In this document: one piece after another, positions 2,521 to 17,974 of the stretch | How positions within the stretch are numbered: the stretch's first letter is position 1 | Layout: each line of letters starts with the position of its first letter | IMG/VR virus record: IMGVR_UViG_3300020042_001691 | Span: 1 to 54,833 of that record | Length of the DNA: 54,833 nt | Source of the DNA: a virus | Lineage: Duplodnaviria; Caudoviricetes | Strand: one strand, 5' to 3' | Program-made: the position numbers and the translations under genes | Notes under the pieces: generated by a model | What the model was told of the DNA's origin: nothing | The model's input: the letters and a program-made list of their open reading frames with translations, nothing else | The model's database searches: none

Positions 2521-3603
2521 ATGAATACTACCGTTCAATTCTCCCCCAAGGCTTCCCTCGCTGAAGCCGCAACCATCATCGAAGTCGTCGGTGATACGTC
2601 CACCTGTATCTTGCTGGGCGAACCCGGTATCGGCAAGACCCAGATCCTCAAGACCCTTGAGGAACGTCTCGGTGATGCGTATGATTATGTGTATGTCGAT
2701 TGTCCTCTCAAGGAATTGATGGACATCGGCGCGAACATCCCTAACCATGAGGATCGTGCGCTGACGTACTACGTCGCGGGTCTCTTCAAGCTGTCGGGTC
2801 CGGGCGCGAATCGTCCCAAGGTCATCATGTTGGACGAGGTCTTCAAGACAGACAAAATGATGAGGAAGATCTTTACCCGTCTCATCCTTGAGCGTTACGT
2901 AGGGGATCTGCCCCTCCCTGAAGGCTCAATCGTATTCGGTACGTCTAACAACGTGACCGATGGTGTGGGTGACGTACTTGAGGGTCACGTTGGTTCGCGG
3001 GTTATGCTGGTCCCTATCCGCAAGCCAAACGCTACGGAGTACAACTCTTGGGCGGGCAAGCACGGCGTCTCACCTGTGACTCGTGCGTGGGTGGCGTCAA
3101 CCCCACGTTGTATGCATAGCTACACCGATGGTAATCAGGACGACAACCCGTTCATCTTCAACCCAAAGAAGAACACCAAGCAATACGTGTGTGGGCGCTC
3201 GCTTACGAAGGCTGACATCGCTGTCATCCAGCGTAGGGATAAGTTCAGCGAGAACGAGATGATGGTCGCACTGGTCGGTCTGGTCGGTGAGTCTGCTGCG
3301 CGTTCGATGATGGCGTTCGTTCAAGTTCAGCACAAGATGATCAAGTTCGAGAATGTGCTGGCTGATCCGAAGGGTGTGTCTATGCCTGATGACATCGCTG
3401 TGCAACTTATGATGATGATGGAGGCGACGGACAAACTGAACACGCAGGATGAGTTGTCTGCGTACATGGAGTTCGTCAACCGGATCAAGTCGTCCGAGAT
3501 CCAAGCCATCTTCTTTACCATGATGAGCAAGGATCGTATGAAGCTGGCGCGTTACAACCAGCAGATCAACGAGTGGTCGCACAAAAACTTCGAGCTTATC
3601 TAA
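2521..3603 (+). CDS. MoxR-like AAA+ ATPase
   Basis: Walker A GEPGIGKT, Walker B VIMLDE, sensor-1 GTSN; directly upstream of a VWA gene. Confidence 0.88.
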   Translation: MNTTVQFSPKASLAEAATIIEVVGDTSTCILLGEPGIGKTQILKTLEERLGDAYDYVYVDCPLKELMDIGANIPNHEDRALTYYVAGLFKLSGPGANRPKVIMLDEVFKTDKMMRKIFTRLILERYVGDLPLPEGSIVFGTSNNVTDGVGDVLEGHVGSRVMLVPIRKPNATEYNSWAGKHGVSPVTRAWVASTPRCMHSYTDGNQDDNPFIFNPKKNTKQYVCGRSLTKADIAVIQRRDKFSENEMMVALVGLVGESAARSMMAFVQVQHKMIKFENVLADPKGVSMPDDIAVQLMMMMEATDKLNTQDELSAYMEFVNRIKSSEIQAIFFTMMSKDRMKLARYNQQINEWSHKNFELI

Positions 3604-3642
3604 TAGATCAGCCGACCCTGAACCCTTAAACAACTAGGAGTT

Positions 3643-4890
3643 ATGACTATGGATATTGGAACCCGTATCAAGAAGGCGCACATCCGCCTGATGAAGCACC
3701 CAGAGACTGCGCTCTACTCGGGCGTGATGATGATGGGCAAGTCGGAGGTGACGGAGCGCGAGATCACTGCGTACACCGATGGTGTCAACAAAATCTACGG
3801 CAAGAAGTTCTCGGAGAATCTTACCGACGAGATGCTGCGTGGTCTCATCATGCACGAGAACTTGCACGTAGCGTTGCGCCACCTGATTCACAACAAGGAT
3901 CTGTTCACCAAGAACAAGAAGATCGCTAACTGTGCGGCTGACTACGTGGTCAACGGCATCATCAACGACATCAAGGACAAGGCGCTGTGCAAGCTGCCTA
4001 TGGGCGCACTGGTTGACGACAAGTATCGTGATATGTCGATGCGTGAAGTCTATCGGTTGTTGGAAGATAAGTACAAAGAAAAGGAACCACCGGATGACGA
4101 AGGTGACGACGAGGGTGGGGACGAGGGTGATGGCCCATCGGGTGATGGACCTACGGGTAAGTCCGAGGATGGCAAGCGCGGTAAGCCGAAGGATAATATC
4201 CCTGACCCGCTCGATGAACACGACTCAGATAGCACCCCAGAGTCGGCTGAAGAGTTGAAGAAGGTAAGCGATGCGGTGGACAACGCATTGCGTGAGGGTG
4301 GCATCCTCGCTGGTCGGTTGGGTATACAGATCCCACGGGCAATCGAGGAGTCGTTGGAGCCGCGAGTGGACTGGCGTACTGAACTCATGGAGTTCATTAC
4401 ATCTACCATGAAGGGCAGCGATGAATATACATGGAAGCGGTACAACCGCCGCACCATCGACTATGCATTGATGCCTACTACCGAGAACGAGAAGATCAGC
4501 GAGCTTGTGGTGGCGTTCGATACTTCAGGCTCTATCGGTGGTGCGGTGCTGTCTATGTTTGCGGGGGAACTAGCATCAATCTGTACGCTTGTCCAACCGG
4601 ACGTTGTGCGGGTGATCTGGTGGGATGCGATGGTTCACGGTGAGCAGATCTTCACTGACAACTACGAGAACATCGCAGCGTTGCTCAAGCCCTTGGGCGG
4701 TGGCGGCACTAACGTGTCGTCAGTGTCTAGGTATATTGTGGAGAAGAAGTATGAGCCAGACTGTGTCGTGGTCTTCACTGATGGTTATGTGGAGGATTCG
4801 ATCCAGTGGAATGTGACGGCCCCGACGATGTGGTTCGTTACGGACAACCGGAGTCGCTCGTTCCCCGGCAAGGTGGTGAAGGTCGATTGA
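3643..4890 (+). CDS. HEXXH metallopeptidase-like domain + acidic linker + VWA domain (DUF2201-like)
   Basis: AYTDG and HENLH in the N-terminal part; MIDAS DTSGS, GGGGT and VVFTDGY in the C-terminal part. Confidence 0.88.
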   Translation: MTMDIGTRIKKAHIRLMKHPETALYSGVMMMGKSEVTEREITAYTDGVNKIYGKKFSENLTDEMLRGLIMHENLHVALRHLIHNKDLFTKNKKIANCAADYVVNGIINDIKDKALCKLPMGALVDDKYRDMSMREVYRLLEDKYKEKEPPDDEGDDEGGDEGDGPSGDGPTGKSEDGKRGKPKDNIPDPLDEHDSDSTPESAEELKKVSDAVDNALREGGILAGRLGIQIPRAIEESLEPRVDWRTELMEFITSTMKGSDEYTWKRYNRRTIDYALMPTTENEKISELVVAFDTSGSIGGAVLSMFAGELASICTLVQPDVVRVIWWDAMVHGEQIFTDNYENIAALLKPLGGGGTNVSSVSRYIVEKKYEPDCVVVFTDGYVEDSIQWNVTAPTMWFVTDNRSRSFPGKVVKVD

Positions 4891-8246: not shown

Positions 8247-8428
8247 ACACTGAAGAGGAAAAGGACAAAGAAATAGATAGGCTTCGTAAAGCTTTGTACT
8301 ACGAAGCAAACAGATTTCAGCGGATCGGGACTCATGCGCCCGACTGTTGGAAGTGGGGTCCGCAACACTACGAATGTGCGTTGCGGCATATTAAAGAGCA
8401 AACTGAAAATTGGAGTAATCATGACTAA
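8243..8428 (+). CDS. Hypothetical protein (61 aa)
   Basis: AAGGAG RBS, ATGA overlap. Confidence 0.65.
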   Translation: MNTEEEKDKEIDRLRKALYYEANRFQRIGTHAPDCWKWGPQHYECALRHIKEQTENWSNHD

Positions 8429-8672
8429 GGAATTTCCATTCAACGGGCTGATGGCTGGCGATGTTCAAGTCGGCGGCAATCACTATACAGAGATGCCTAT
8501 TCAGCCGTGGGAACTGATGGAGGAAGTTCTTAGCCATGAGGAGTTTGTTGGATTCCTCAAGGGTAACGTGATTAAGTACTCCCTTCGCGCGGGTCGCAAG
8601 GAGGGGTCTGATGACGTTGCTAAAGCGAAGCACTACCTTAAGAAACTGCAAGAGGTCCGGGGAGCCTACTGA
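8421..8672 (+). CDS. DUF3310 (SaV-like, T7 gp1.7-related) protein
   Basis: QVGGNHY...IQPW...GFLKGNVIKY..RAGRK...DVAKAKHYL signature. Confidence 0.85.
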   Translation: MTKEFPFNGLMAGDVQVGGNHYTEMPIQPWELMEEVLSHEEFVGFLKGNVIKYSLRAGRKEGSDDVAKAKHYLKKLQEVRGAY

Positions 8673-10540
8673 TGGATTTCATTACGCTGGACTTCGAGAC
8701 TTACTACGACAAGACGTTCTCTTTGAGTCGTCTCACCACAGAGGAATATATTAGGCACGAGCAGTTTCAAGTCATCGGGTTCAGCGTAAAGGTGAACAAT
8801 GGTCCCTCGATTTGGTACTCAGGGGACCATGAAGTCTTAAGTAGCCACCTCAAGCGGTACAACTGGCGCAATGCCACACTGCTTGCTCACAACACAATGT
8901 TCGACGGGGCGATCTTGGACTGGGTGTTCAAGATCAAACCTAAGTTCTTTGCGGATACGTTATGCATGGCACGGGCGATTCACGGCGTAGATGCTGGTGG
9001 GTCGCTCGCTGCCCTTGCCGAACGCTACAAGATTGGCGAGAAGGGAACTGAGGTTGTCGCTGCTCTTGGCAAACGTAGGGAAGATTTTTCCCACGAAGAA
9101 TTGGATAAGTACGGAGCGTACTGTTCCAATGACGTAGAGTTAACTTATACGTTGTACAACATATTGGGTAAGGGTTTTCCCCACATAGAGTTAGGTCTTA
9201 TTGATCAAACCATGCGTATGTTTATCCGTCCAGAACTGTATGTGGACGAGCAAGTTCTTTTAGAGCGTAAGTTAGACATCATCAAGGAGCGCAAGGAACT
9301 TCTGAGCGGACTGCGCGAGAAGTTGAACTGCGAGACCGACGAAGCTGTAGCCACCAAACTATCCAGCAACAAACAATTTGCAGAACTGTTAGTATCTTTT
9401 GGTATAAACGTACCCACTAAAATCAGCCCTACCACGGGCAAGTCTGCAACTGCCCTTGCCAAAAAGGACGAGGGGTTCCTCACCCTGTGCGAACACGAAG
9501 ATGTGTTCATCCAAAACCTGTGCGCTGCTAGGCTGGGCGTAAAGTCCACTCTAGAAGAAAAGCGTGTGCAGCGGTTCATCGACATTGGGCAGCGCAACAA
9601 AGAGCGCATACCTATCCCGCTCAAATACTATGGCGCACACACCGGAAGGTGGGCAGGTTCCGATAAGGTTAACTTTCAGAATCTTCCTAGCCGCGACGTA
9701 AAGAAGAAGGCTCTGAAGAACGCCATCATTGCGCCAGAGCATCATCTAGTCGTCAACTGTGACTCGGCGCAAATCGAGGCGCGGGTGCTTGCGTGGTTGG
9801 CAGGACAGGACGATGTGGTGAAGATGTTTGCTGATAAGCAAGACGTATACAGGGCCATGTCGTCAAAGATCTATTCATGCAAGCCTGAAGACGTAACTAA
9901 GGAGCAGCGGTTCGTGGGTAAGACCGTGGTTCTCGGATGCGGTTACGGCACGGGCGGCGTCAAGCTGCAATCTACATTGGCTACCTCAACGCCACCGATG
10001 GTGTTGGATGAGGAAGAGGCCAAGCGGATTGTCGATGTGTATAGGTCAACAAACCATAAGATTAAAGATCTATGGAGTCACGGTGACGATCTCTTAGATG
10101 CCCTGATTCAGAAGCAGTTTGGCGGTAGGGAACTTCAGTTTGGGGCACACGGGTGCGTGTGGTACGGAGACGAGGGTGTCTCTTTGCCAAATGGTCTGCA
10201 TATCCGATACCTAGATATCCACAAAGCTACTATAGACAAACGTGAAAAGACCGTATACAAATCACGTAAGGGTCCAGTGAGCATCTGGGGCGGTACGGTG
10301 GTTGAGAACGTGGTGCAAGCTCTCGCCCGATGCATCGTGGGTGAACAACTCATGGAAATCAGCAAGCACTACAAGGTCGCGCTCACCGTGCATGACTCGG
10401 TGGTGTGCGTGGTTCCAGAAGCAGAGATCAATGAGGCGCTAGATAGGATCACTGGTATCATGTCAGTCGCCCCGCGCTGGGCTCCGGGCCTTCCCATCTC
10501 ATGCGAGGCCACCTACGGTAAGAGTTATGGAGACTGCTAA
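8672..10540 (+). CDS. polA: DNA polymerase family A with 3'-5' exonuclease
   Basis: Exo I LDFET, Exo II AHNTMFD, Exo III YCSND; HTGRWAG..NFQNLP; motif A DSAQIEAR; motif B RFVGKTVVLGCGYG; motif C TVHDS. Confidence 0.96.
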   Translation: MDFITLDFETYYDKTFSLSRLTTEEYIRHEQFQVIGFSVKVNNGPSIWYSGDHEVLSSHLKRYNWRNATLLAHNTMFDGAILDWVFKIKPKFFADTLCMARAIHGVDAGGSLAALAERYKIGEKGTEVVAALGKRREDFSHEELDKYGAYCSNDVELTYTLYNILGKGFPHIELGLIDQTMRMFIRPELYVDEQVLLERKLDIIKERKELLSGLREKLNCETDEAVATKLSSNKQFAELLVSFGINVPTKISPTTGKSATALAKKDEGFLTLCEHEDVFIQNLCAARLGVKSTLEEKRVQRFIDIGQRNKERIPIPLKYYGAHTGRWAGSDKVNFQNLPSRDVKKKALKNAIIAPEHHLVVNCDSAQIEARVLAWLAGQDDVVKMFADKQDVYRAMSSKIYSCKPEDVTKEQRFVGKTVVLGCGYGTGGVKLQSTLATSTPPMVLDEEEAKRIVDVYRSTNHKIKDLWSHGDDLLDALIQKQFGGRELQFGAHGCVWYGDEGVSLPNGLHIRYLDIHKATIDKREKTVYKSRKGPVSIWGGTVVENVVQALARCIVGEQLMEISKHYKVALTVHDSVVCVVPEAEINEALDRITGIMSVAPRWAPGLPISCEATYGKSYGDC

Positions 10541-11205
10541 TGGAAGTATCCGAGATCAAGTGGTCTTACTCCGGGCTGAAAGACTATCAAAATTGCCCCA
10601 AACAATACCAAGAAGTCAAGGTATTGAAACGCTACGAGAAGCGTCCTACGAAACAGATGCTGTACGGAACAGAGGTTCATACCGCACTGGAGGATTACGT
10701 AAAGGACGGCACTCCACTTGCCAAGAACTACGAACGGTTCAAGGATCTGGTTGACCCCCTTGCGGAGATGGAAGGGATTAAGTATCCTGAACACCGCATG
10801 GCGATCACTTATGACCGAGCGCCCTGTACGTTTGGTGCGAAAGACTACTGGGTGCGTGGCATTGCCGACTTGCTGGTGGTGAACGGGGACTTCGCGTTCA
10901 TCGTTGACTACAAAACGGGAAGCAATAAATACCCAGATCCAAAGCAGTTGCAGTTGATGGCGCTCATGGTCTTTGAACACTTCCCTGAAGTGAACAACAT
11001 CAAAGCAGGGCTGCTGTTTGTCATGCACAACCACTTTGTCGCTTCGGACTATTGCCGCGAGGACAAAGAAAAGCTCTGGGATGACTTTCAACCGACGCTC
11101 GAAAGACTGAGTACATCGTTTAAGAACGATGTATGGCAAGCCAATCCCACCCCGCTATGCGGCTGGTGTCCCGTCCAAACCTGTGAGTTCTATAAAGTAA
11201 AATGA
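10540..11205 (+). CDS. Cas4/RecB-like PD-(D/E)XK exonuclease with Fe-S-type cysteines
   Basis: WSYS..CP, GTEVH, RGIAD, IVDYKTG, QLQL and C-terminal CGWCP...C. Confidence 0.88.
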   Translation: MEVSEIKWSYSGLKDYQNCPKQYQEVKVLKRYEKRPTKQMLYGTEVHTALEDYVKDGTPLAKNYERFKDLVDPLAEMEGIKYPEHRMAITYDRAPCTFGAKDYWVRGIADLLVVNGDFAFIVDYKTGSNKYPDPKQLQLMALMVFEHFPEVNNIKAGLLFVMHNHFVASDYCREDKEKLWDDFQPTLERLSTSFKNDVWQANPTPLCGWCPVQTCEFYKVK

Positions 11206-11390
11206 TTGAAGACACTGTCATAGATTACGCTTACCCGTGCATGATGGCTGAGAAAGCCGTCAAGAACATACACGACGCTGCCCTGCACAACAGGATGGAC
11301 GAAGCCATTGAATCAGCAACCATCGCAATCACAGAATTGCGTTTGGCGCTCGCTGCGCTTAAGATTATGAAAGAAGAACATCGGGGTTGA
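11202..11390 (+). CDS. Hypothetical protein (62 aa)
   Basis: ATGA overlap with the nuclease gene. Confidence 0.7.
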   Translation: MIEDTVIDYAYPCMMAEKAVKNIHDAALHNRMDEAIESATIAITELRLALAALKIMKEEHRG

Positions 11391-11530
11391 GGGTGCTTAA
11401 TCGAGATCGACTACAAGCCTAGTAGATGCGAATAGTCTTTCTTGAGGATTCAGTCCTCTAACCCCGACTGATCTAGTGCTGAATCCTCGCTCCACACCTT
11501 GAGGGCGGCAAGGAATCTACTTACCGCCCA
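11381..11530 (+). ncRNA. Candidate structured (pseudoknotted) non-coding RNA
   Basis: Five complementary segment pairs within 150 nt, including a perfect 10-bp helix (11444-53/11479-88), a ~13-bp helix (11381-93/11454-67) and a 7-bp loop-loop match (11421-27/11515-21). Confidence 0.6.
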
Positions 11531-11550
11531 CCCCCCATCTAGGAAATACC

Positions 11551-11811
11551 ATGCCATACAAAAATCCCAAAGACAGACCTTATAAAGAAGAATATAAAAA
11601 ACAGGTAGCCCGTGGTGAACTGCCTGACCGCATGGAGCGGCAACGCGCTAGACGCGCTGTGGACGCCAAGGGCATCGACAGGACGGGCATGGATGTGTCG
11701 CACAACAAGGCGCTTGCCAAGGGCGGCAGCAACAAAGACGGCTACAAGCTGGAGTCACCGAGTGCCAATCGCAGTCGGAACTTACACAAAAAAGGTGAGA
11801 AAAAGGGTTGA
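11551..11811 (+). CDS. Small HNH-like endonuclease (86 aa)
   Basis: Basic N-terminal helix, then DVSH..ALAKGGSN....L.SPSANRSRN, a beta-beta-alpha-Me-like pattern; AGGA RBS. Confidence 0.65.
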   Translation: MPYKNPKDRPYKEEYKKQVARGELPDRMERQRARRAVDAKGIDRTGMDVSHNKALAKGGSNKDGYKLESPSANRSRNLHKKGEKKG

Positions 11812-11836
11812 CACCCTTACGCCCCGTGCGTACACT
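11808..11836 (+). promoter_or_regulatory. sigma70-type promoter upstream of the helicase
   Basis: TTGACA (11808-13), 17 bp spacer, TACACT (11831-36). Confidence 0.7.
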
Positions 11837-11877
11837 TACGTCAAGATGGGCATATAGCCCAAGTTAAAAGGCAGTCA

Positions 11878-13455
11878 ATGACAGTAGAAGTAGTGCAAGA
11901 CCAAGCGGTCAGGCTTGTGTGTTCTCATGAGTTCGCTCAAGCCGTTAAACAATGCATCCCCAAGAGCGAAATACTTGGCGCTAGAGGCAGCGACTCCGAG
12001 TTGCTGATCTACTGGGGACTGCGCGAGATGCAGACACTGTCTAGCCTCGCCCCAAACATAAAGATTCCCTCCCCTATTGCCAGAGACTACAACTGGCCGG
12101 GAATGTTCACGCCGTTCGATCACCAACGAGACACCTCTAGGTTCTTGTCTCTGCATCAACGTGCGTTCTGCTTCAACGAGGCAGGGACAGGCAAGACTTC
12201 CGCCGCTATCTGGGCTGCGGACTATCTAATGAATCAGGGCTTGGTGAAGCGCTGTTTAGTCATCTGTCCGATGTCCATCATGCAAACAGCATGGCAAGCT
12301 GACCTTTTTAAGATAGCGATGCACCGAACGAGCGCAATCGCGCATGGCTCACTGGTCAAACGCCAGAAGGTCATTAACGGCAGCTACGACTTCGTGATCA
12401 TCAACTTCGATGGTGTCGGTGTTGTTGAGCAGGACATCCTGAAGAATGAGTTTGACCTCATCATCGTAGACGAGTGCAACGCCTACAAGAACCCTACGAC
12501 AAAGCGTTGGAAGATCCTATCGAAGATCATCCGTGCCGATACGTATGTGTGGATGATGACCGGGACTCCCGCAGCGCAGTCCCCGATGGATGCATACGGA
12601 TTGGCAAGGATCATTCGCCCGGAGGGTGTGCCCCGCAGGATGTCTTCATGGCAAGAGAAGGTCATGCAGCAGTATTCCAGATTTGTCTGGAAGCCGAAGC
12701 CCGATGCGCGTAAGACAGTCTTTGAAGCACTTCAGCCAGCGATCCGCTACGAGAAAGCCGACTGCCTAGATCTTCCTGAGGTCATGTACCAGACTAGGGT
12801 AATCCCTCTTACAGCTTCAGTCGATAGGTACTATAAAGAGCTTAAGAAAGAAATGCTGATCGAGGCGGCTGGTGAGACGATCACCACAGTCAACGCAGCG
12901 GCAGCGTTAAGCAAACTATTGCAGATATCTGGAGGGGCGGTCTACACGAGCAGCAAGAACGTCATCGAGTTCGATGTGTCGCCCCGCCTCAATGTTCTTA
13001 AAGAAGTAATTGAAGAAACAAGTCACAAAGTTCTTGTTTTTGTGCCCTATACGCACACGATTACGGTTATAGTTGAGTTTCTGAAGAAAGAGGGCATTGC
13101 CAACGCAGTGATCTCGGGGGATGTCTCCGCGAACAACCGCACAGCGATCTTCAACTCTTTCCAAAGAGACAACGATCTGAAAGTCCTAGTGATTCAGCCA
13201 CAAGCTGCATCACATGGTGTGACTCTGACAGCCGCTGATACGGTGGTGTTCTGGTCACCTGTGATGTCCGTAGAGACATACTTGCAATGTATCGCACGTA
13301 TAGATCGAGTCGGGCAAGTGAATAAAATGACAGTTATCCACCTCCAAGGGTCTGATGTAGAGCAACGGATGTACGCGATGCTGCAAGGCAAAGTAGATAC
13401 ACACGAAAAGCTAGTTGACCTTTATCGACAAGAAATGGAATTTCAAAATGAGTAA
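11878..13455 (+). CDS. SNF2-like superfamily II helicase
   Basis: Q motif PFDHQ, Walker A EAGTGKT, DECN, motif III MTGTP, HGVTL, motif VI QCIARIDRVGQ. Confidence 0.92.
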   Translation: MTVEVVQDQAVRLVCSHEFAQAVKQCIPKSEILGARGSDSELLIYWGLREMQTLSSLAPNIKIPSPIARDYNWPGMFTPFDHQRDTSRFLSLHQRAFCFNEAGTGKTSAAIWAADYLMNQGLVKRCLVICPMSIMQTAWQADLFKIAMHRTSAIAHGSLVKRQKVINGSYDFVIINFDGVGVVEQDILKNEFDLIIVDECNAYKNPTTKRWKILSKIIRADTYVWMMTGTPAAQSPMDAYGLARIIRPEGVPRRMSSWQEKVMQQYSRFVWKPKPDARKTVFEALQPAIRYEKADCLDLPEVMYQTRVIPLTASVDRYYKELKKEMLIEAAGETITTVNAAAALSKLLQISGGAVYTSSKNVIEFDVSPRLNVLKEVIEETSHKVLVFVPYTHTITVIVEFLKKEGIANAVISGDVSANNRTAIFNSFQRDNDLKVLVIQPQAASHGVTLTAADTVVFWSPVMSVETYLQCIARIDRVGQVNKMTVIHLQGSDVEQRMYAMLQGKVDTHEKLVDLYRQEMEFQNE

Positions 13456-13855
13456 CGCAGAAGATCTAGTTAAAACCTACCTGATGATCCGCAACGAGCG
13501 TGACGCACAGCGTAGTAAGTACGAGTCCACAGACGCAGAACTGAAAGCACAGCTTGAAGTCATTGAACAAGCCTTGCTCTCTTTGTGTAATGAGATCAAC
13601 ACCAACGGATTGAAGACCACTTTCGGCACAGTCACTCGCTCAGTGAAAGAGCGTTTCTTCTGCACCGACTGGGACAACTTCAAGAAGTTCCTAGCCGAAG
13701 TGGATGGATTCGATCTGTTGGAGCGCCGTATCCATCAGCGCAATTTCAAAGAATTCGTAGCCGAGCGCCAGAATGACGGTTTGCCGCCCGGAGTGAATGT
13801 ACTGCGAGAGTTTGACATCGTGGTACGTAAGTCTTCTACCCCCGTCGAAGTCTAA
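13448..13855 (+). CDS. Conserved phage replication-module protein (coiled-coil N-terminus, 135 aa)
   Basis: ATG at 13448 overlaps the helicase end; KTTFGTV...DWDNF...LLERRI...LPPGV pattern. Confidence 0.7.
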   Translation: MSNAEDLVKTYLMIRNERDAQRSKYESTDAELKAQLEVIEQALLSLCNEINTNGLKTTFGTVTRSVKERFFCTDWDNFKKFLAEVDGFDLLERRIHQRNFKEFVAERQNDGLPPGVNVLREFDIVVRKSSTPVEV

Positions 13856-15136: not shown

Positions 15137-17974
15137 ATGAATGAACTATTCTTTCAAAAAATCCTGCCTAGTCAGGGGGTTCTGTGTGTAGCCTCGATAA
15201 ACAAAGACGGAACCATAGTCCCGAAGTTCCCGGAAACTGTCGATGAGCTACTAGCTCACGTAGAGAGCTTTCTTAGCAAAGAAGTTAATATCTATTTCAC
15301 ACCGGGATCTTACGAGGGATCTCGGCGCAAGCAGTCCGACTGCGTTGCGATGAAGTGTTTCTTCCTCGACCTAGATTTCATGCATGGGAAGAACGCCTAC
15401 CCAAGCAAAGAGGCAGCGATTGAAGATGTCTACCGCTTTTGCGAAGACATCAGTTGGCCCCTTCCTACGCTTATAGATTCTGGCGGTGGGGTACATGCCT
15501 ATTGGATCTTTGAAGAAGACGTACCCAGCGATGTGTGGGATGTCTATGCAAAGCAGTTCAAGGACTTATGCCTTGACCGCCATCTGATCATTGATGAGTG
15601 CGTACCCGCAGACTCTGCGCGGCTCATGCGTGTTCCGGGATCTATCAATTACAGATACAACCCTCCTGCTCCAGCAGTCCTTCTCACAGAGGTCTTCACA
15701 TACGCTTTTGAAACGCTGATCGAAGTATTCGGCAGCACACCACTTGAGCCATCTATTGACCTCAAGAACATCTTTGACTCTGCTGAGAAGGGCATTGATG
15801 AGGCATCACAAAAGATATGGGACGAGCAGCGCAAGAACTTTGAGTTCGACTTCTACGACATCGTAGAGAAGAGCCTTGACGGTACAGGCTGCAAGCAGAT
15901 CGCTGAGGCTGTCACCGAAGCCGCTACCCTACCCGAGCCCCAGTGGTATGCAGCCATGTCTGTCGCCGTCCGGTGCAAGGATGGCATGGAGGCGGTACAT
16001 AAGCTGTCAGAGGATTACCCCAAGTACAACGCTGCCGACACTGAGCGCAAAGCAAACCAGTCCTTAGAGAACGCAGGATGGGCGCATAGCTGCGATGCGT
16101 TTGAATCTATTAACCCAGCGGGGTGCAGGGGATGCCCCCATAAAGGGAAATTAGGGAAGCTTGGCCCGATTAGTTTAGGAAAAACCCTAAGGATCGCAAG
16201 CGCGAGTGAGGCGGTAGTCGAGGTAGCAGACCCTAAAGATATTCTGTTTCCAGAGTATATGTGGCCCTACGCCCGTGGGCAGAACGGCGGTATCTACTTC
16301 ACTCCTCCTGCTAGGCATACGAAAGACGGTAAGAAAGTTCAGGACGATGCAGAGCAACTACTGCTCCACGATCTATTCCCAACGCAGCGTGTGTACAGCC
16401 CTATGGATGGTGAGTGCATGATGATGCGCCTGATTCTACCGAGGGACGGTCAGCGGAACTTCATCCTCCCGCTCAAAGAGATCACAGCACAGGACAAACT
16501 GAAGTCGGTGCTGGCGCACAACGGGGTAGTGTTTGAACCCATGAAGATCGCCCGAATAACTTCATATCTGATGAAGTGGTCTGGGTATTTTATCAATGTA
16601 GAAAGGGCCGAAACCATGCACATGCAGCAAGGGTGGACCGAGGATTTCAAAGGATTTATTCTTGGCTCAACCCTATACGAGAGGGGCGGCGAAAGGCCAT
16701 CGCCTCAGTCACCTTGGGCGCGGAACATCATCAAGAACATGAAGAGGGAAGGTTCGTATGATCGGTGGAAGAAGTCAGCACAAGACCTTAATCGTCCCCA
16801 CTTCGAGAAACACGCCATCGTACTCCTCAGCGGCTTTGCCTCTATCCTCATGCCCTTCACGGCAGTCAACGGGATAACCGTCTCTGCGCTTGGGCAGACT
16901 GGATCGGCAAAGACAGGATCAATGTACGGGGCATTGAGCATCTGGGGGGAGCCAAAGTCTTTGACATTGGGTACGTATACCCACAATGCGCTCATTCAGC
17001 GCATGATCGGCTCGAAGAACCTACCCTTCGGGATGGATGAGCAGACGAACTGCTCGAATAAAGACGCCTCCGATATCGTCTACTCTACCTCTGCTGGTAA
17101 ACCAAAACTACGGATGCAGTCCTCTACCAACTCTGAGCGCACTCAGGAGTACATGTCTAGCTTGATTAGCATTATCACGACCAACCAATCGTGGCGTGAA
17201 AAGATCGCAGCGTACAAGTCAGACTCCTCCGCTGAAGAGATGCGGCTGCTGGAGATGACCTTCCCTGTGCTGCCAGAACTCAATCAGAAGCTGGGCACGG
17301 AAATCTTTGACGCCTTTAATCACCACTACGGTCACGCTGGGCCAATCTTTGTACAGCATCTGCTAGGGCTAGGCGCAGACGACATCAAAGAACTCATCAG
17401 TGTCGAGATGCAAAGAGTCATGGATCGCTTCAATGCAAAAAGCGAATACCGTTTTCTTAACTCTTACGGTGCGCTAATCTATGTGGCAGCGGCGCTCTGC
17501 AAAGAACTTGACATTGTTGACTACGACATGGACCGCATCGGTGGGGTGCTCATTAAAGAACTTAATGCGGTTTCTAACCATAGGGATCAGAACAAGGTAG
17601 ATCCTGAGGCACTGCTAGGCGAGTTCATGGACAACCATCTGCGTGATCATCTGGTGATAAGTGATGGGCGCGTGACTCATGATCCGTATGGCTCACTGCT
17701 GATACGGACTGAAGTAGAGAACGGGCGATGCCTCACCTACGTGTCCACCTCTGCATTGAAAGCATTTTTGGCCGACAAGCAAGCCTCGATCAGCAACTTT
17801 GAGGATACGATGGTCAGGCTTGGAAAGTTGGGTAATCCGTCAAAGATCAAGAAGAAGATGGCAGCGGGATGGAAGGCGGGACTGAGTTCCACCAACATCA
17901 ATGCCTATGTCTTCACAATGGATCCAGACTTCATCAACGAGATCATAAATGAACAACCCCGAGCCGCTGCTTAA
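15137..17974 (+). CDS. Primase (AEP/RepB-like) fused to a Cys-rich domain and a DUF927/helicase-like domain
   Basis: FFLDLD, DSGGGVHAYW, DSARLMRVPGS.NY; C...CRGCPH cluster; degenerate P-loop GQTGSAKT and MDE. Confidence 0.85.
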   Translation: MNELFFQKILPSQGVLCVASINKDGTIVPKFPETVDELLAHVESFLSKEVNIYFTPGSYEGSRRKQSDCVAMKCFFLDLDFMHGKNAYPSKEAAIEDVYRFCEDISWPLPTLIDSGGGVHAYWIFEEDVPSDVWDVYAKQFKDLCLDRHLIIDECVPADSARLMRVPGSINYRYNPPAPAVLLTEVFTYAFETLIEVFGSTPLEPSIDLKNIFDSAEKGIDEASQKIWDEQRKNFEFDFYDIVEKSLDGTGCKQIAEAVTEAATLPEPQWYAAMSVAVRCKDGMEAVHKLSEDYPKYNAADTERKANQSLENAGWAHSCDAFESINPAGCRGCPHKGKLGKLGPISLGKTLRIASASEAVVEVADPKDILFPEYMWPYARGQNGGIYFTPPARHTKDGKKVQDDAEQLLLHDLFPTQRVYSPMDGECMMMRLILPRDGQRNFILPLKEITAQDKLKSVLAHNGVVFEPMKIARITSYLMKWSGYFINVERAETMHMQQGWTEDFKGFILGSTLYERGGERPSPQSPWARNIIKNMKREGSYDRWKKSAQDLNRPHFEKHAIVLLSGFASILMPFTAVNGITVSALGQTGSAKTGSMYGALSIWGEPKSLTLGTYTHNALIQRMIGSKNLPFGMDEQTNCSNKDASDIVYSTSAGKPKLRMQSSTNSERTQEYMSSLISIITTNQSWREKIAAYKSDSSAEEMRLLEMTFPVLPELNQKLGTEIFDAFNHHYGHAGPIFVQHLLGLGADDIKELISVEMQRVMDRFNAKSEYRFLNSYGALIYVAAALCKELDIVDYDMDRIGGVLIKELNAVSNHRDQNKVDPEALLGEFMDNHLRDHLVISDGRVTHDPYGSLLIRTEVENGRCLTYVSTSALKAFLADKQASISNFEDTMVRLGKLGNPSKIKKKMAAGWKAGLSSTNINAYVFTMDPDFINEIINEQPRAAA

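Follow-up and report, generated by a model that had tools for sequence, protein, structure and literature searches.

The locus discussed here raises the question of what lies in a gap of 160 nucleotides (nt; positions 11391-11550) separating a 62-amino-acid (aa) open reading frame (ORF) from an 86-aa ORF in the IMG/VR virus record IMGVR_UViG_3300020042_001691. The whole 54,833-base record, referred to below as the window, has an estimated completeness of 87%. A first-pass annotation, made from the letters alone, had described the gap as a multiply pseudoknotted, highly ordered RNA and had suggested, among other roles, that this RNA is the partner of the small HNH-like protein encoded next to it. 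The description of the fold was borne out by comparison with 92 homologs, in which the crossing helices A and C both covary, and the partnership was not. Structured RNAs of ~150-165 nt, found in lake and freshwater phages, almost certainly form a family to which the element belongs, and this double-pseudoknot family, featuring two pseudoknots and a kissing contact, is so far unnamed. Regarding function, the best explanation is a co-transcribed intercistronic RNA that acts in cis on the translation of the flanking cistrons, a reading held at roughly even odds (probability about 0.5).

The structured element, delimited by covariance-model matches, extends over 11377-11539 on the + strand, to which all coordinates of the fold refer. 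The complementary segments A, B, C, D and E of the first-pass annotation were re-derived at identical positions. The 5' arm of helix A (11381-11393) holds the TGA stop codon (11388-11390) of the 62-aa ORF and pairs with the 3' arm at 11454-11467, which is situated in the loop of helix C. The 5' arm of helix C (11444-11453), directly abutting the 3' arm of A, pairs with 11479-11488. Helices A and C cross with abutting arms to form a first H-type pseudoknot, and hairpin B (11403-11443) is inserted in its first loop, consisting of an outer stem (11403-11406/11440-11443), an inner stem (GACTA 11409-11413/TAGTC 11433-11437), two closing pairs G-C and C-G (11417-11418/11428-11429) and the 9-nt loop CUAGUAGAU (11419-11427). 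A conserved single-stranded linker, GCUCCACA (11489-11496; family consensus about aCUCCnCA), is followed by helix F (11497-11513), which was added in this analysis. Helix F, formed by CCUUG (11497-11501) and CAAGG (11509-11513), encloses the 5' arm of helix D (GGGCGG, 11503-11508) and crosses D, producing a second H-type pseudoknot. The remaining segment (11514-11529) comprises a loop carrying the 3' strand of contact E (AUCUACU, 11515-11521) and the 3' arm of D (CCGCCC, 11524-11529). Through contact E, the loop of hairpin B (5' strand AGUAGAU, 11421-11427) forms 6-7 base pairs with this long loop of the second pseudoknot, clasping both halves of the molecule.

Folding energy alone would not establish this structure, since the fold is only modestly better than chance, with a z of -2.37 on the + strand (1 of 200 shuffles equally good) and -2.16 on the - strand; the comparison of homologs does establish it. 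A helicase protein was used to retrieve 80 related phage loci, among which a homologous gap was found only in the closest relatives, L002 (99% nucleotide identity) and L003 and L004 (~80% protein identity). Between the window and L004 the stem sequences differ yet still pair, while two loop sequences are identical. These two loops, taken as search patterns, returned 6 and 32 stretches, about half of the latter being true relatives on inspection, and a combined two-loop pattern returned 102 stretches in IMG/VR. Removal of duplicates left 69 distinct sequences from the pattern searches.

Two covariance models were built from a 31-sequence MAFFT alignment (A4) without the window in the seed, R1 describing helices A, B and D and R2 describing B, C and F. 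With filters off, R1 matched the window at a single place (11377-11538/9; 72.7 bits, E-value 8e-21), and R2 scored 91.5 bits. Two further pattern stretches, obtained from a scan of one genome per prokaryote species, were judged to be chance, as L201 was matched by neither model and L200 gave only a weak match to R2 (21.8 bits, E-value 0.0017) and none to R1. Among GenBank phages, blastn returned no match to 11100-11900 of the window or to the consensus-like member L181.

Searches based on the loops are unfit to assess contact E, and because the pattern fixed the sequence of E, a second set of 80 loci was fetched by way of the gene for a small endonuclease, which in most phages comes next after the element. 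The element was carried by 33 of these loci, on the gene strand in all 33, including 27 full-length copies with altered loops beyond the reach of the pattern. Pattern-found and protein-selected sequences were combined into 92 distinct sequences, representing at least 129 IMG/VR phage contigs. The element is present as a single copy, both in the window (filters off) and in the related record G002, and blastn detected no second copy in the window. A miniature inverted-repeat transposable element or a repetitive extragenic element, expected in many copies, was thereby ruled out.

All helices, including E, showed compensatory changes once homologs had been collected. Across the 92 sequences, 89.1% of the cells are paired, versus 38-50% with slid partners; 46 of 51 pairs change on both sides, and none of 500 shuffles reached the observed covariation score. 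The R1-fitted alignment of 67 sequences gave 85.2% paired cells versus 42-47% with slid partners and 44 compensatory pairs of 53, including the core of helix A (9/9) and helix D (7/7; 97.8% paired). In the R2-fitted alignment (69 rows, including L200, the weak match put down to chance), helix C is 94.9% paired with 11/11 compensatory pairs and helix F has 5/5, a count repeated for F in the 92 sequences at 96.6-99.4% pairing. Hairpin B is 89.5-95.6% paired, with changes on both sides in all 11 pairs. Helix D, examined on alignment A9 where it was not fitted, remained 95.9% paired (6/7 compensatory), and the unfitted MAFFT alignment followed the same trend (83.2% versus 39-49%, with F 100% paired). 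Arms also scored better with their own partners than with those of other sequences, at 24.4 versus 14.9 for A and 25.7 versus 14.1 for C.

RNAalifold run on the raw MAFFT alignment of 69 sequences returned no more than 9 pairs, owing to misalignment of the variable arms, and it was replaced by anchor-based helix finding, the cognate/non-cognate arm comparison and the two covariance models. Anchor-based finding recovered the same arm order in every sequence, namely A5'-B-C5'-A3'-C3'-linker-F5'-D5'-F3'-conserved loop-D3'. In an unsupervised mutual-information scan, the top 28 pairs were all annotated ones, two of them in contact E, and no alternative helix was seen. Loop and linker nucleotides are near-invariant across the family, and no covarying partner was found for the linker (11489-11496).

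Contact E, proposed in the first-pass annotation as a kissing interaction between the loops of B and D, belongs to neither model, and its pairing is accordingly not fitted. It is 96.5% paired in the 92 sequences, with two-sided changes at 4 of its 7 pairs, as in the replacement of GUAGAU/AUCUAC by GCAGAU/AUCUGC, by GUAUAU/AUAUAC or by AAUAGAU/AUCUAUU. The edge pair occurs as A-U (49), U-A (14), G-C (3) and C-G (1), with G-U also present, and the three other variable positions as G-C 89 and A-U 2, U-A 84 and C-G 7, and G-C 88 and U-A 2. Exceptions are a single sequence with one uncompensated change and 21 sequences in which the edge pair is mismatched, as U-U in 20 cases.

That the molecule is an RNA transcribed from the gene strand is indicated by wobble pairs, gene orientation and, weakly, an RNA-library contig. 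Read on that strand, helices B, C and F contain 216 G-U plus U-G pairs, versus 23 A-C plus C-A; the less well fitted A5 alignment gives 217 versus 109. A contig from a lake-water RNA library (run X1) covers 11170-11491, that is, the upstream ORF and two thirds of the element, and could stem from DNA carry-over. In runs X2, X3 and X6, 11376-11777 is free of contig cover, and the uncovered part does not count as evidence. The annotation's view that the element is not a terminator proved correct; an intrinsic (Rho-independent) terminator was ruled out as there is no U-run, helix D being followed by ACCCCCCAUC, and no terminator-like site at 11381-11550. Neither a promoter-like nor a terminator-like site was found in or beside the element in the window, and a tRNA search of the window was negative.

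The element keeps a fixed register with the genes on both sides. A long upstream ORF ends between -83 and +18 nt of the first helix-A column in 86 of the 92 sequences; 75 of these 86 end between -9 and +7, and 46 exactly at +6. A stop triplet occupies the same position of helix A in 54 of the 92 sequences, and a long open frame reaches it in 48. All 48 reached stops are in frame, where chance would put one third in frame (nominal binomial p about 1e-23, with relatedness disregarded), with 36 different C-terminal hexapeptides in front of them. The upstream proteins are varied (n = 84), including DUF3310 (28), NrdR-like zinc ribbon (4), Ogr/Delta (2), helix-turn-helix types and many unknown ones. 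On the other side, the next start codon of an ORF of at least 45 codons lies 8-34 nt after helix D in 75 of the 92 sequences, most often 20-22 nt. Stop and start are separated by 144-248 nt, in most cases by 165-180 nt. In the window itself, the final codons and stop of the 62-aa ORF (11202-11390, +; without a Pfam family) are within helix A, and the 86-aa ORF (11551-11811, +) is preceded by a Shine-Dalgarno (SD)-like UAGGAAA, the motif together with the AUG at 11551 spanning 11540-11553 (+), with the start 21 nt past helix D.

Coding explanations for this register were considered and rejected. The frame classes of the two flanking ORFs (23/21/29) show no relation, and stops in all three frames occur in the gap in 58 of 73 cases, so read-through, frameshifting and in-frame bypass were discarded; A-AAG-GGC-type slippery sites were seen by eye in a few members only. 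A conserved small protein-coding ORF was rejected on the same stops in all three + frames (58/73) and on substitutions that are compensatory as for RNA.

The position of the element suggests how it could act. The element takes up the entire gap between two cistrons, with the upstream stop inside the 5' arm of A and a ribosome-binding site (RBS) and start codon ~20 nt past D, and would be transcribed on the gene strand within the mRNA of the replication module. A ribosome terminating on the upstream gene would have to melt helix A and hence the first pseudoknot, while hairpin B would sit at its mRNA entrance, tied through contact E to the second pseudoknot. As the second pseudoknot leads into the next RBS, folded RNA would lie at the edge of the next initiation site. 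With helix A opened on one side and a fold bordering initiation on the other, the RNA would be in a position to couple translation of the replication or nuclease gene downstream to that of the upstream gene, to insulate the one from the other or to act as a gate, possibly with an added response to a bound ligand or protein. As neither a covarying SD-sequestering helix nor a sign of read-through, frameshifting or in-frame bypass was found, simple textbook platforms are not supported.

Several points weigh against control of translation in cis. Family, fold, strand, position relative to stop and start codons, and presence or absence as a cassette can be read from the sequences themselves, and the effect on translation is what we infer from them. 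The pairing percentages of fitted helices are biased upward in the model-fitted alignments A5, A6 and A9. The next start lies 44-106 nt after D in 12 of the 92 sequences, and 5 have none within 120 nt. No covarying SD-sequestering pairing was found when the linker and the arms A3', D3' and D5' were compared with the SD region (rank fraction 0.48-0.51), a comparison that cannot exclude a generic contact, the linker CUCC being complementary to any SD. In addition, L083, L141, L144, L169 and L086 have a C-rich and then a T-rich run plus a TTGACA promoter-like sequence before the endonuclease gene; in the L083/L086 subfamily the RNA is at the 3' end of the DUF3310 transcript and not in a leader, and in this type it cannot act alike on initiation at the next gene. 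The varied families of downstream genes are unusual for a metabolite riboswitch, and the fold with its near-invariant loops exceeds what simple translational coupling needs, favouring contact with a ligand, a protein or the ribosome, or catalysis.

A separate observation concerns other phages, where a recurring palindrome of the CTAACATTTGTTAG type adjoins a terminator and a TTGACAAAGT-type promoter. It was found upstream of the endonuclease gene in L240, L263, L271, L274 and L282 and after the element in L094, L102 and L107, and it may be an operator of these phages.

Comparison with relatives without the element showed what its presence changes. In L005 and L007, the homolog of the 62-aa ORF extends 23 nt into the HNH-like gene, whose start it overlaps in a different frame (3493-3696/3674-3928 in L005; 3291-3494/3472-3783 in L007). 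The flanking genes overlap where the element is missing, and the element therefore behaves as a cassette of ~165-167 nt that supplies a stop to the gene before it and an RBS to the gene after it. Of the loci without the element in the other phage group, 44 could be measured; at 28 of these the upstream ORF overlaps or abuts the endonuclease gene, and at 11 a classic terminator, with a TTGACA-type promoter behind it, occupies that boundary. A 3-nt CAT is found at both element junctions relative to L005, too short a repeat for a target-site duplication to be called. The distribution is scattered, the element being confined to the clade of the window among the 80 helicase relatives and present at 33 of the 80 endonuclease loci, and two related records (86% and 92% complete) contain no copy anywhere. 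This scatter suggests gain by horizontal transfer, and repeated loss could also account for it.

The flanking genes downstream are likewise diverse. A downstream ORF is found within 130 nt at 99 of the 104 loci obtained with the pattern, encoding an endonuclease of ~98 aa (51), an unknown 148-aa protein (11), polA (5), the HNH-like protein (4), a PD-(D/E)XK exonuclease (3) or others. The ~98-aa protein matches the PHROG 93 'endonuclease' profile (E-value 1e-14) and weakly Hjc, and presumably carries a motif of the VRR-NUC type.

Among the other explanations, the element may be a new class of self-cleaving ribozyme, or an element for RNase processing or stability that cuts the polycistronic mRNA and protects the end of one cistron; this is rather unlikely. 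Self-cleaving ribozymes are known from phages, placed between cistrons with varied neighbours, and the element is likewise single-copy, intercistronic and flanked by varied genes. Like twister, twister-sister, pistol, hatchet and hepatitis delta virus (HDV)-like ribozymes, which are compact pseudoknots with conserved loop and junction nucleotides, intergenic in phages and without a fixed neighbour, it is a compact double pseudoknot with near-invariant loop and linker nucleotides. It differs from them in the helix order A-B-C-A'-C'-F-D-F'-D', in the contact between the B and D loops and in lacking a match to their Rfam models, no Rfam 15 ribozyme family being matched even at E-values up to 10. 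The run X1 contig ends at 11491, within the conserved linker, with the Illumina adapter directly after it; this end was seen in a single contig of a single run and could be a processing site or random fragmentation. Nor does cleavage alone explain why the stop codon sits so exactly in helix A.

A ligand-sensing riboswitch aptamer, responding for instance to a nucleotide or a signal molecule and controlling the downstream replication and nuclease genes, is somewhat less probable again. Cobalamin, guanidine-II and preQ1-II/III riboswitches use kissing-loop or pseudoknot contacts, and the element resembles them in that a covarying long-range loop-loop helix joins its 5' domain to a 3' domain beside the RBS. 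The conserved, covarying, aptamer-like fold with invariant junction and loop nucleotides, the distance of ~20 nt to the start codon in 75 of the 92 sequences and a downstream gene that mostly serves DNA metabolism (the 51 endonuclease, 5 polA, 3 PD-(D/E)XK exonuclease and 4 HNH-like cases among the 99) all favour such a switch. An expression platform was not found, there being neither covariation that would sequester the SD nor a terminator. Unlike those riboswitches, the element has no Rfam match, no sequestered SD and no 5' untranslated region or leader of its own, as it starts inside the upstream ORF, and its gene context offers no metabolic theme that would point to a ligand.

Release of the RNA from the mRNA for an action in trans or in replication, as a primer or origin transcript for the polymerase module or as an anti-defence decoy, appears improbable. 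The element is always in the replication module, beside polA, endonuclease, helicase or DUF3310 genes, and its sporadic occurrence among close relatives suggests an accessory role. Against this, it lacks a promoter and a terminator of its own, occurs only once per genome, and keeps a fixed stop and start register for which a trans-acting RNA has no need.

The prospects of an element acting as DNA, by single-stranded hairpins, as a replication origin or as a priming site, are slight. Its location in the replication module would suit such a role, and covariation in stems is also expected of hairpins in single-stranded DNA, but the excess of G-U over A-C pairs on the gene strand (216 versus 23), the covariation of both pseudoknots together with the kissing loop, the orientation with the genes in 33 of 33 protein-selected loci and the fixed register with stop and start codons argue for RNA.

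The HNH-like protein had been regarded as a possible partner by analogy with HEARO/omegaRNA and IscB. Its family is indeed HNH-related, Pfam HNH being matched by 5 of 15 homologs (best E-value 2.5e-5), whereas the window copy itself matches only GH-E (E-value 0.078), and the family profile found no solved structure at E-values up to 1. Of the 80 loci retrieved with the helicase, 54 contain the gene. The element does adjoin this HNH-related gene in the window and in L002-L004, as HEARO/omegaRNA adjoins a gene with an HNH motif, but the partnership can be dismissed with near certainty, since 51 of the 54 loci with the gene lack the RNA, the gene is downstream of the RNA in only 4 of the 104 pattern-found loci (all in the clade of the window), the two relatives' records with 86% and 92% completeness hold no copy of the element, no window scan matched the HEARO model, and the neighbour is a basic protein of 86 aa with an HNH-like core only, free of RuvC and bridge-helix domains. 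The co-occurrence comparison that the annotation itself had named thus revealed no linkage, and the protein is a neighbour of the RNA rather than its partner. A comparison of gene content between the window and G002, which have the element, and G001, which does not, gave too many differing genes to single out a partner protein. DUF3310 is encoded in the window and G002 and was not found in G001, being one of about 25 such ORFs; a functional link between DUF3310 and the element is possible on this sequence comparison.

Cis control of translation by viral RNA has precedents, and the element shares features with several of them. The T4 gene 32, gp43 and RegA sites are phage translational operators, and the H-type pseudoknot of gene 32 acts in cis on translation. 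Like the latter, the element places an H-type pseudoknot in the mRNA of phage replication genes just upstream of a start codon. In T4 gene 32, a single small pseudoknot is located where a leader starts at its 5' end, and it is bound by the product of the gene itself; the element, unlike it, is ~150 nt long, combines a hairpin and a kissing contact with two pseudoknots, starts within the upstream ORF and precedes varied genes. Calicivirus termination upstream ribosome-binding sites (TURBS) and T4 gene 60 offer a second precedent, in which a stop codon in a defined RNA structure steers the next act of the ribosome. The element also embeds a stop codon in a defined structure, and differs from both in its stop-to-start distance of mostly 165-180 nt, in having no frame relation and in a downstream gene with its own SD.

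The annotation's statement that no Rfam family could be assigned was upheld by a cmscan of the whole window against Rfam 15 (4227 models), which gave no match at gathering score. At E-values up to 10, only three noise matches appeared in 11150-11950, the best being mir-4429 with 19.1 bits against a gathering score of 97, and nine loci from other subfamilies gave none at E-values up to 1. A full-text literature search returned no description of such an element, nor of any RNA linked to DUF3310 or VRR-NUC-type genes, and the accessible portion of the Minerva preprint does not mention it. PMC10690425 describes the prediction, from IMG/VR, of 8,495 candidate RNAs that are unnamed and 29-151 nt long, and that catalogue may contain part of the element in undescribed form, which limits the claim of novelty accordingly. 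PMC10690425 also mentions the T4 gene 32 pseudoknot and states that Rfam holds no model of it.

A more far-reaching proposal, possible but tentative, is that these RNAs constitute a new portable class of translation-control RNA, a ~165-nt cassette with its own stop and RBS, the fold of which would decide whether ribosomes are handed on to a gene 165-180 nt away, by long-range termination-reinitiation or by ligand or protein gating, and which would have spread horizontally between unrelated lake phages, from one replication module to another. In a variant of this proposal, the fold would be a self-cleaving ribozyme of a new class, with an activity set by the terminating ribosome. Complex RNA folds that contain several covarying pseudoknots have so far nearly always proved to be riboswitches, ribozymes or ribosome-interacting devices, and new classes are scarce. 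With the upstream stop placed in the first helix, at the ends of many unrelated genes, termination of translation and folding of the RNA become linked, and we know of no described bacterial or phage element with a stop codon built into its first helix in this way. The family is abundant and short and has a detailed pairing model including a tertiary contact, making it well suited to direct experiment. Moreover, for a large group of uncultured freshwater phages, the element is useful in annotation as a marker of the boundary that precedes the replication genes, and it could serve as a compact natural part for controlling gene-order effects in operons.

The gene neighbourhood in the window is that of a replication module, the + arm carrying early and replication genes and the - arm structural genes. 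On the + strand, the DUF3310 gene (8334-8672; E-value 2.4e-16) is followed by a family A DNA polymerase (8672-10540), a PD-(D/E)XK (Cas4-like) nuclease (10540-11205; PF12705, E-value 8e-19) and the 62-aa ORF. The first-pass annotation had placed the gap between a Cas4-like nuclease region and the HNH-like gene; the gap does precede the latter, and the Cas4-like gene lies one gene further upstream with the 62-aa ORF in between. Downstream of the 86-aa gene, an SNF2 helicase is encoded at 11878-13455 (+). A promoter-like site (TTGACA, 17 nt, TACACT; 10/12 matches) was noticed at 11808-11836 (+), after the 86-aa gene and upstream of the helicase, and the starts of RNA-library contigs of two runs near it, at 11825 and 11835, are only a weak hint.

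Other genes of the + arm were noted in passing. A 146-aa ORF (13415-13855, +) matches the PHROG profile 'minor head protein' (E-value 1e-21), a label that may be wrong because the replication arm is an odd location for a head protein. A 945-aa protein with a DUF927 domain (15137-17974, +) is probably a primase-helicase of the replication module. An AAA_5 (MoxR-like) ATPase followed by a DUF2201 metallopeptidase/VWA protein is encoded at 2521-4890 (+), and the same gene pair is found upstream of the element in L092 and L112.

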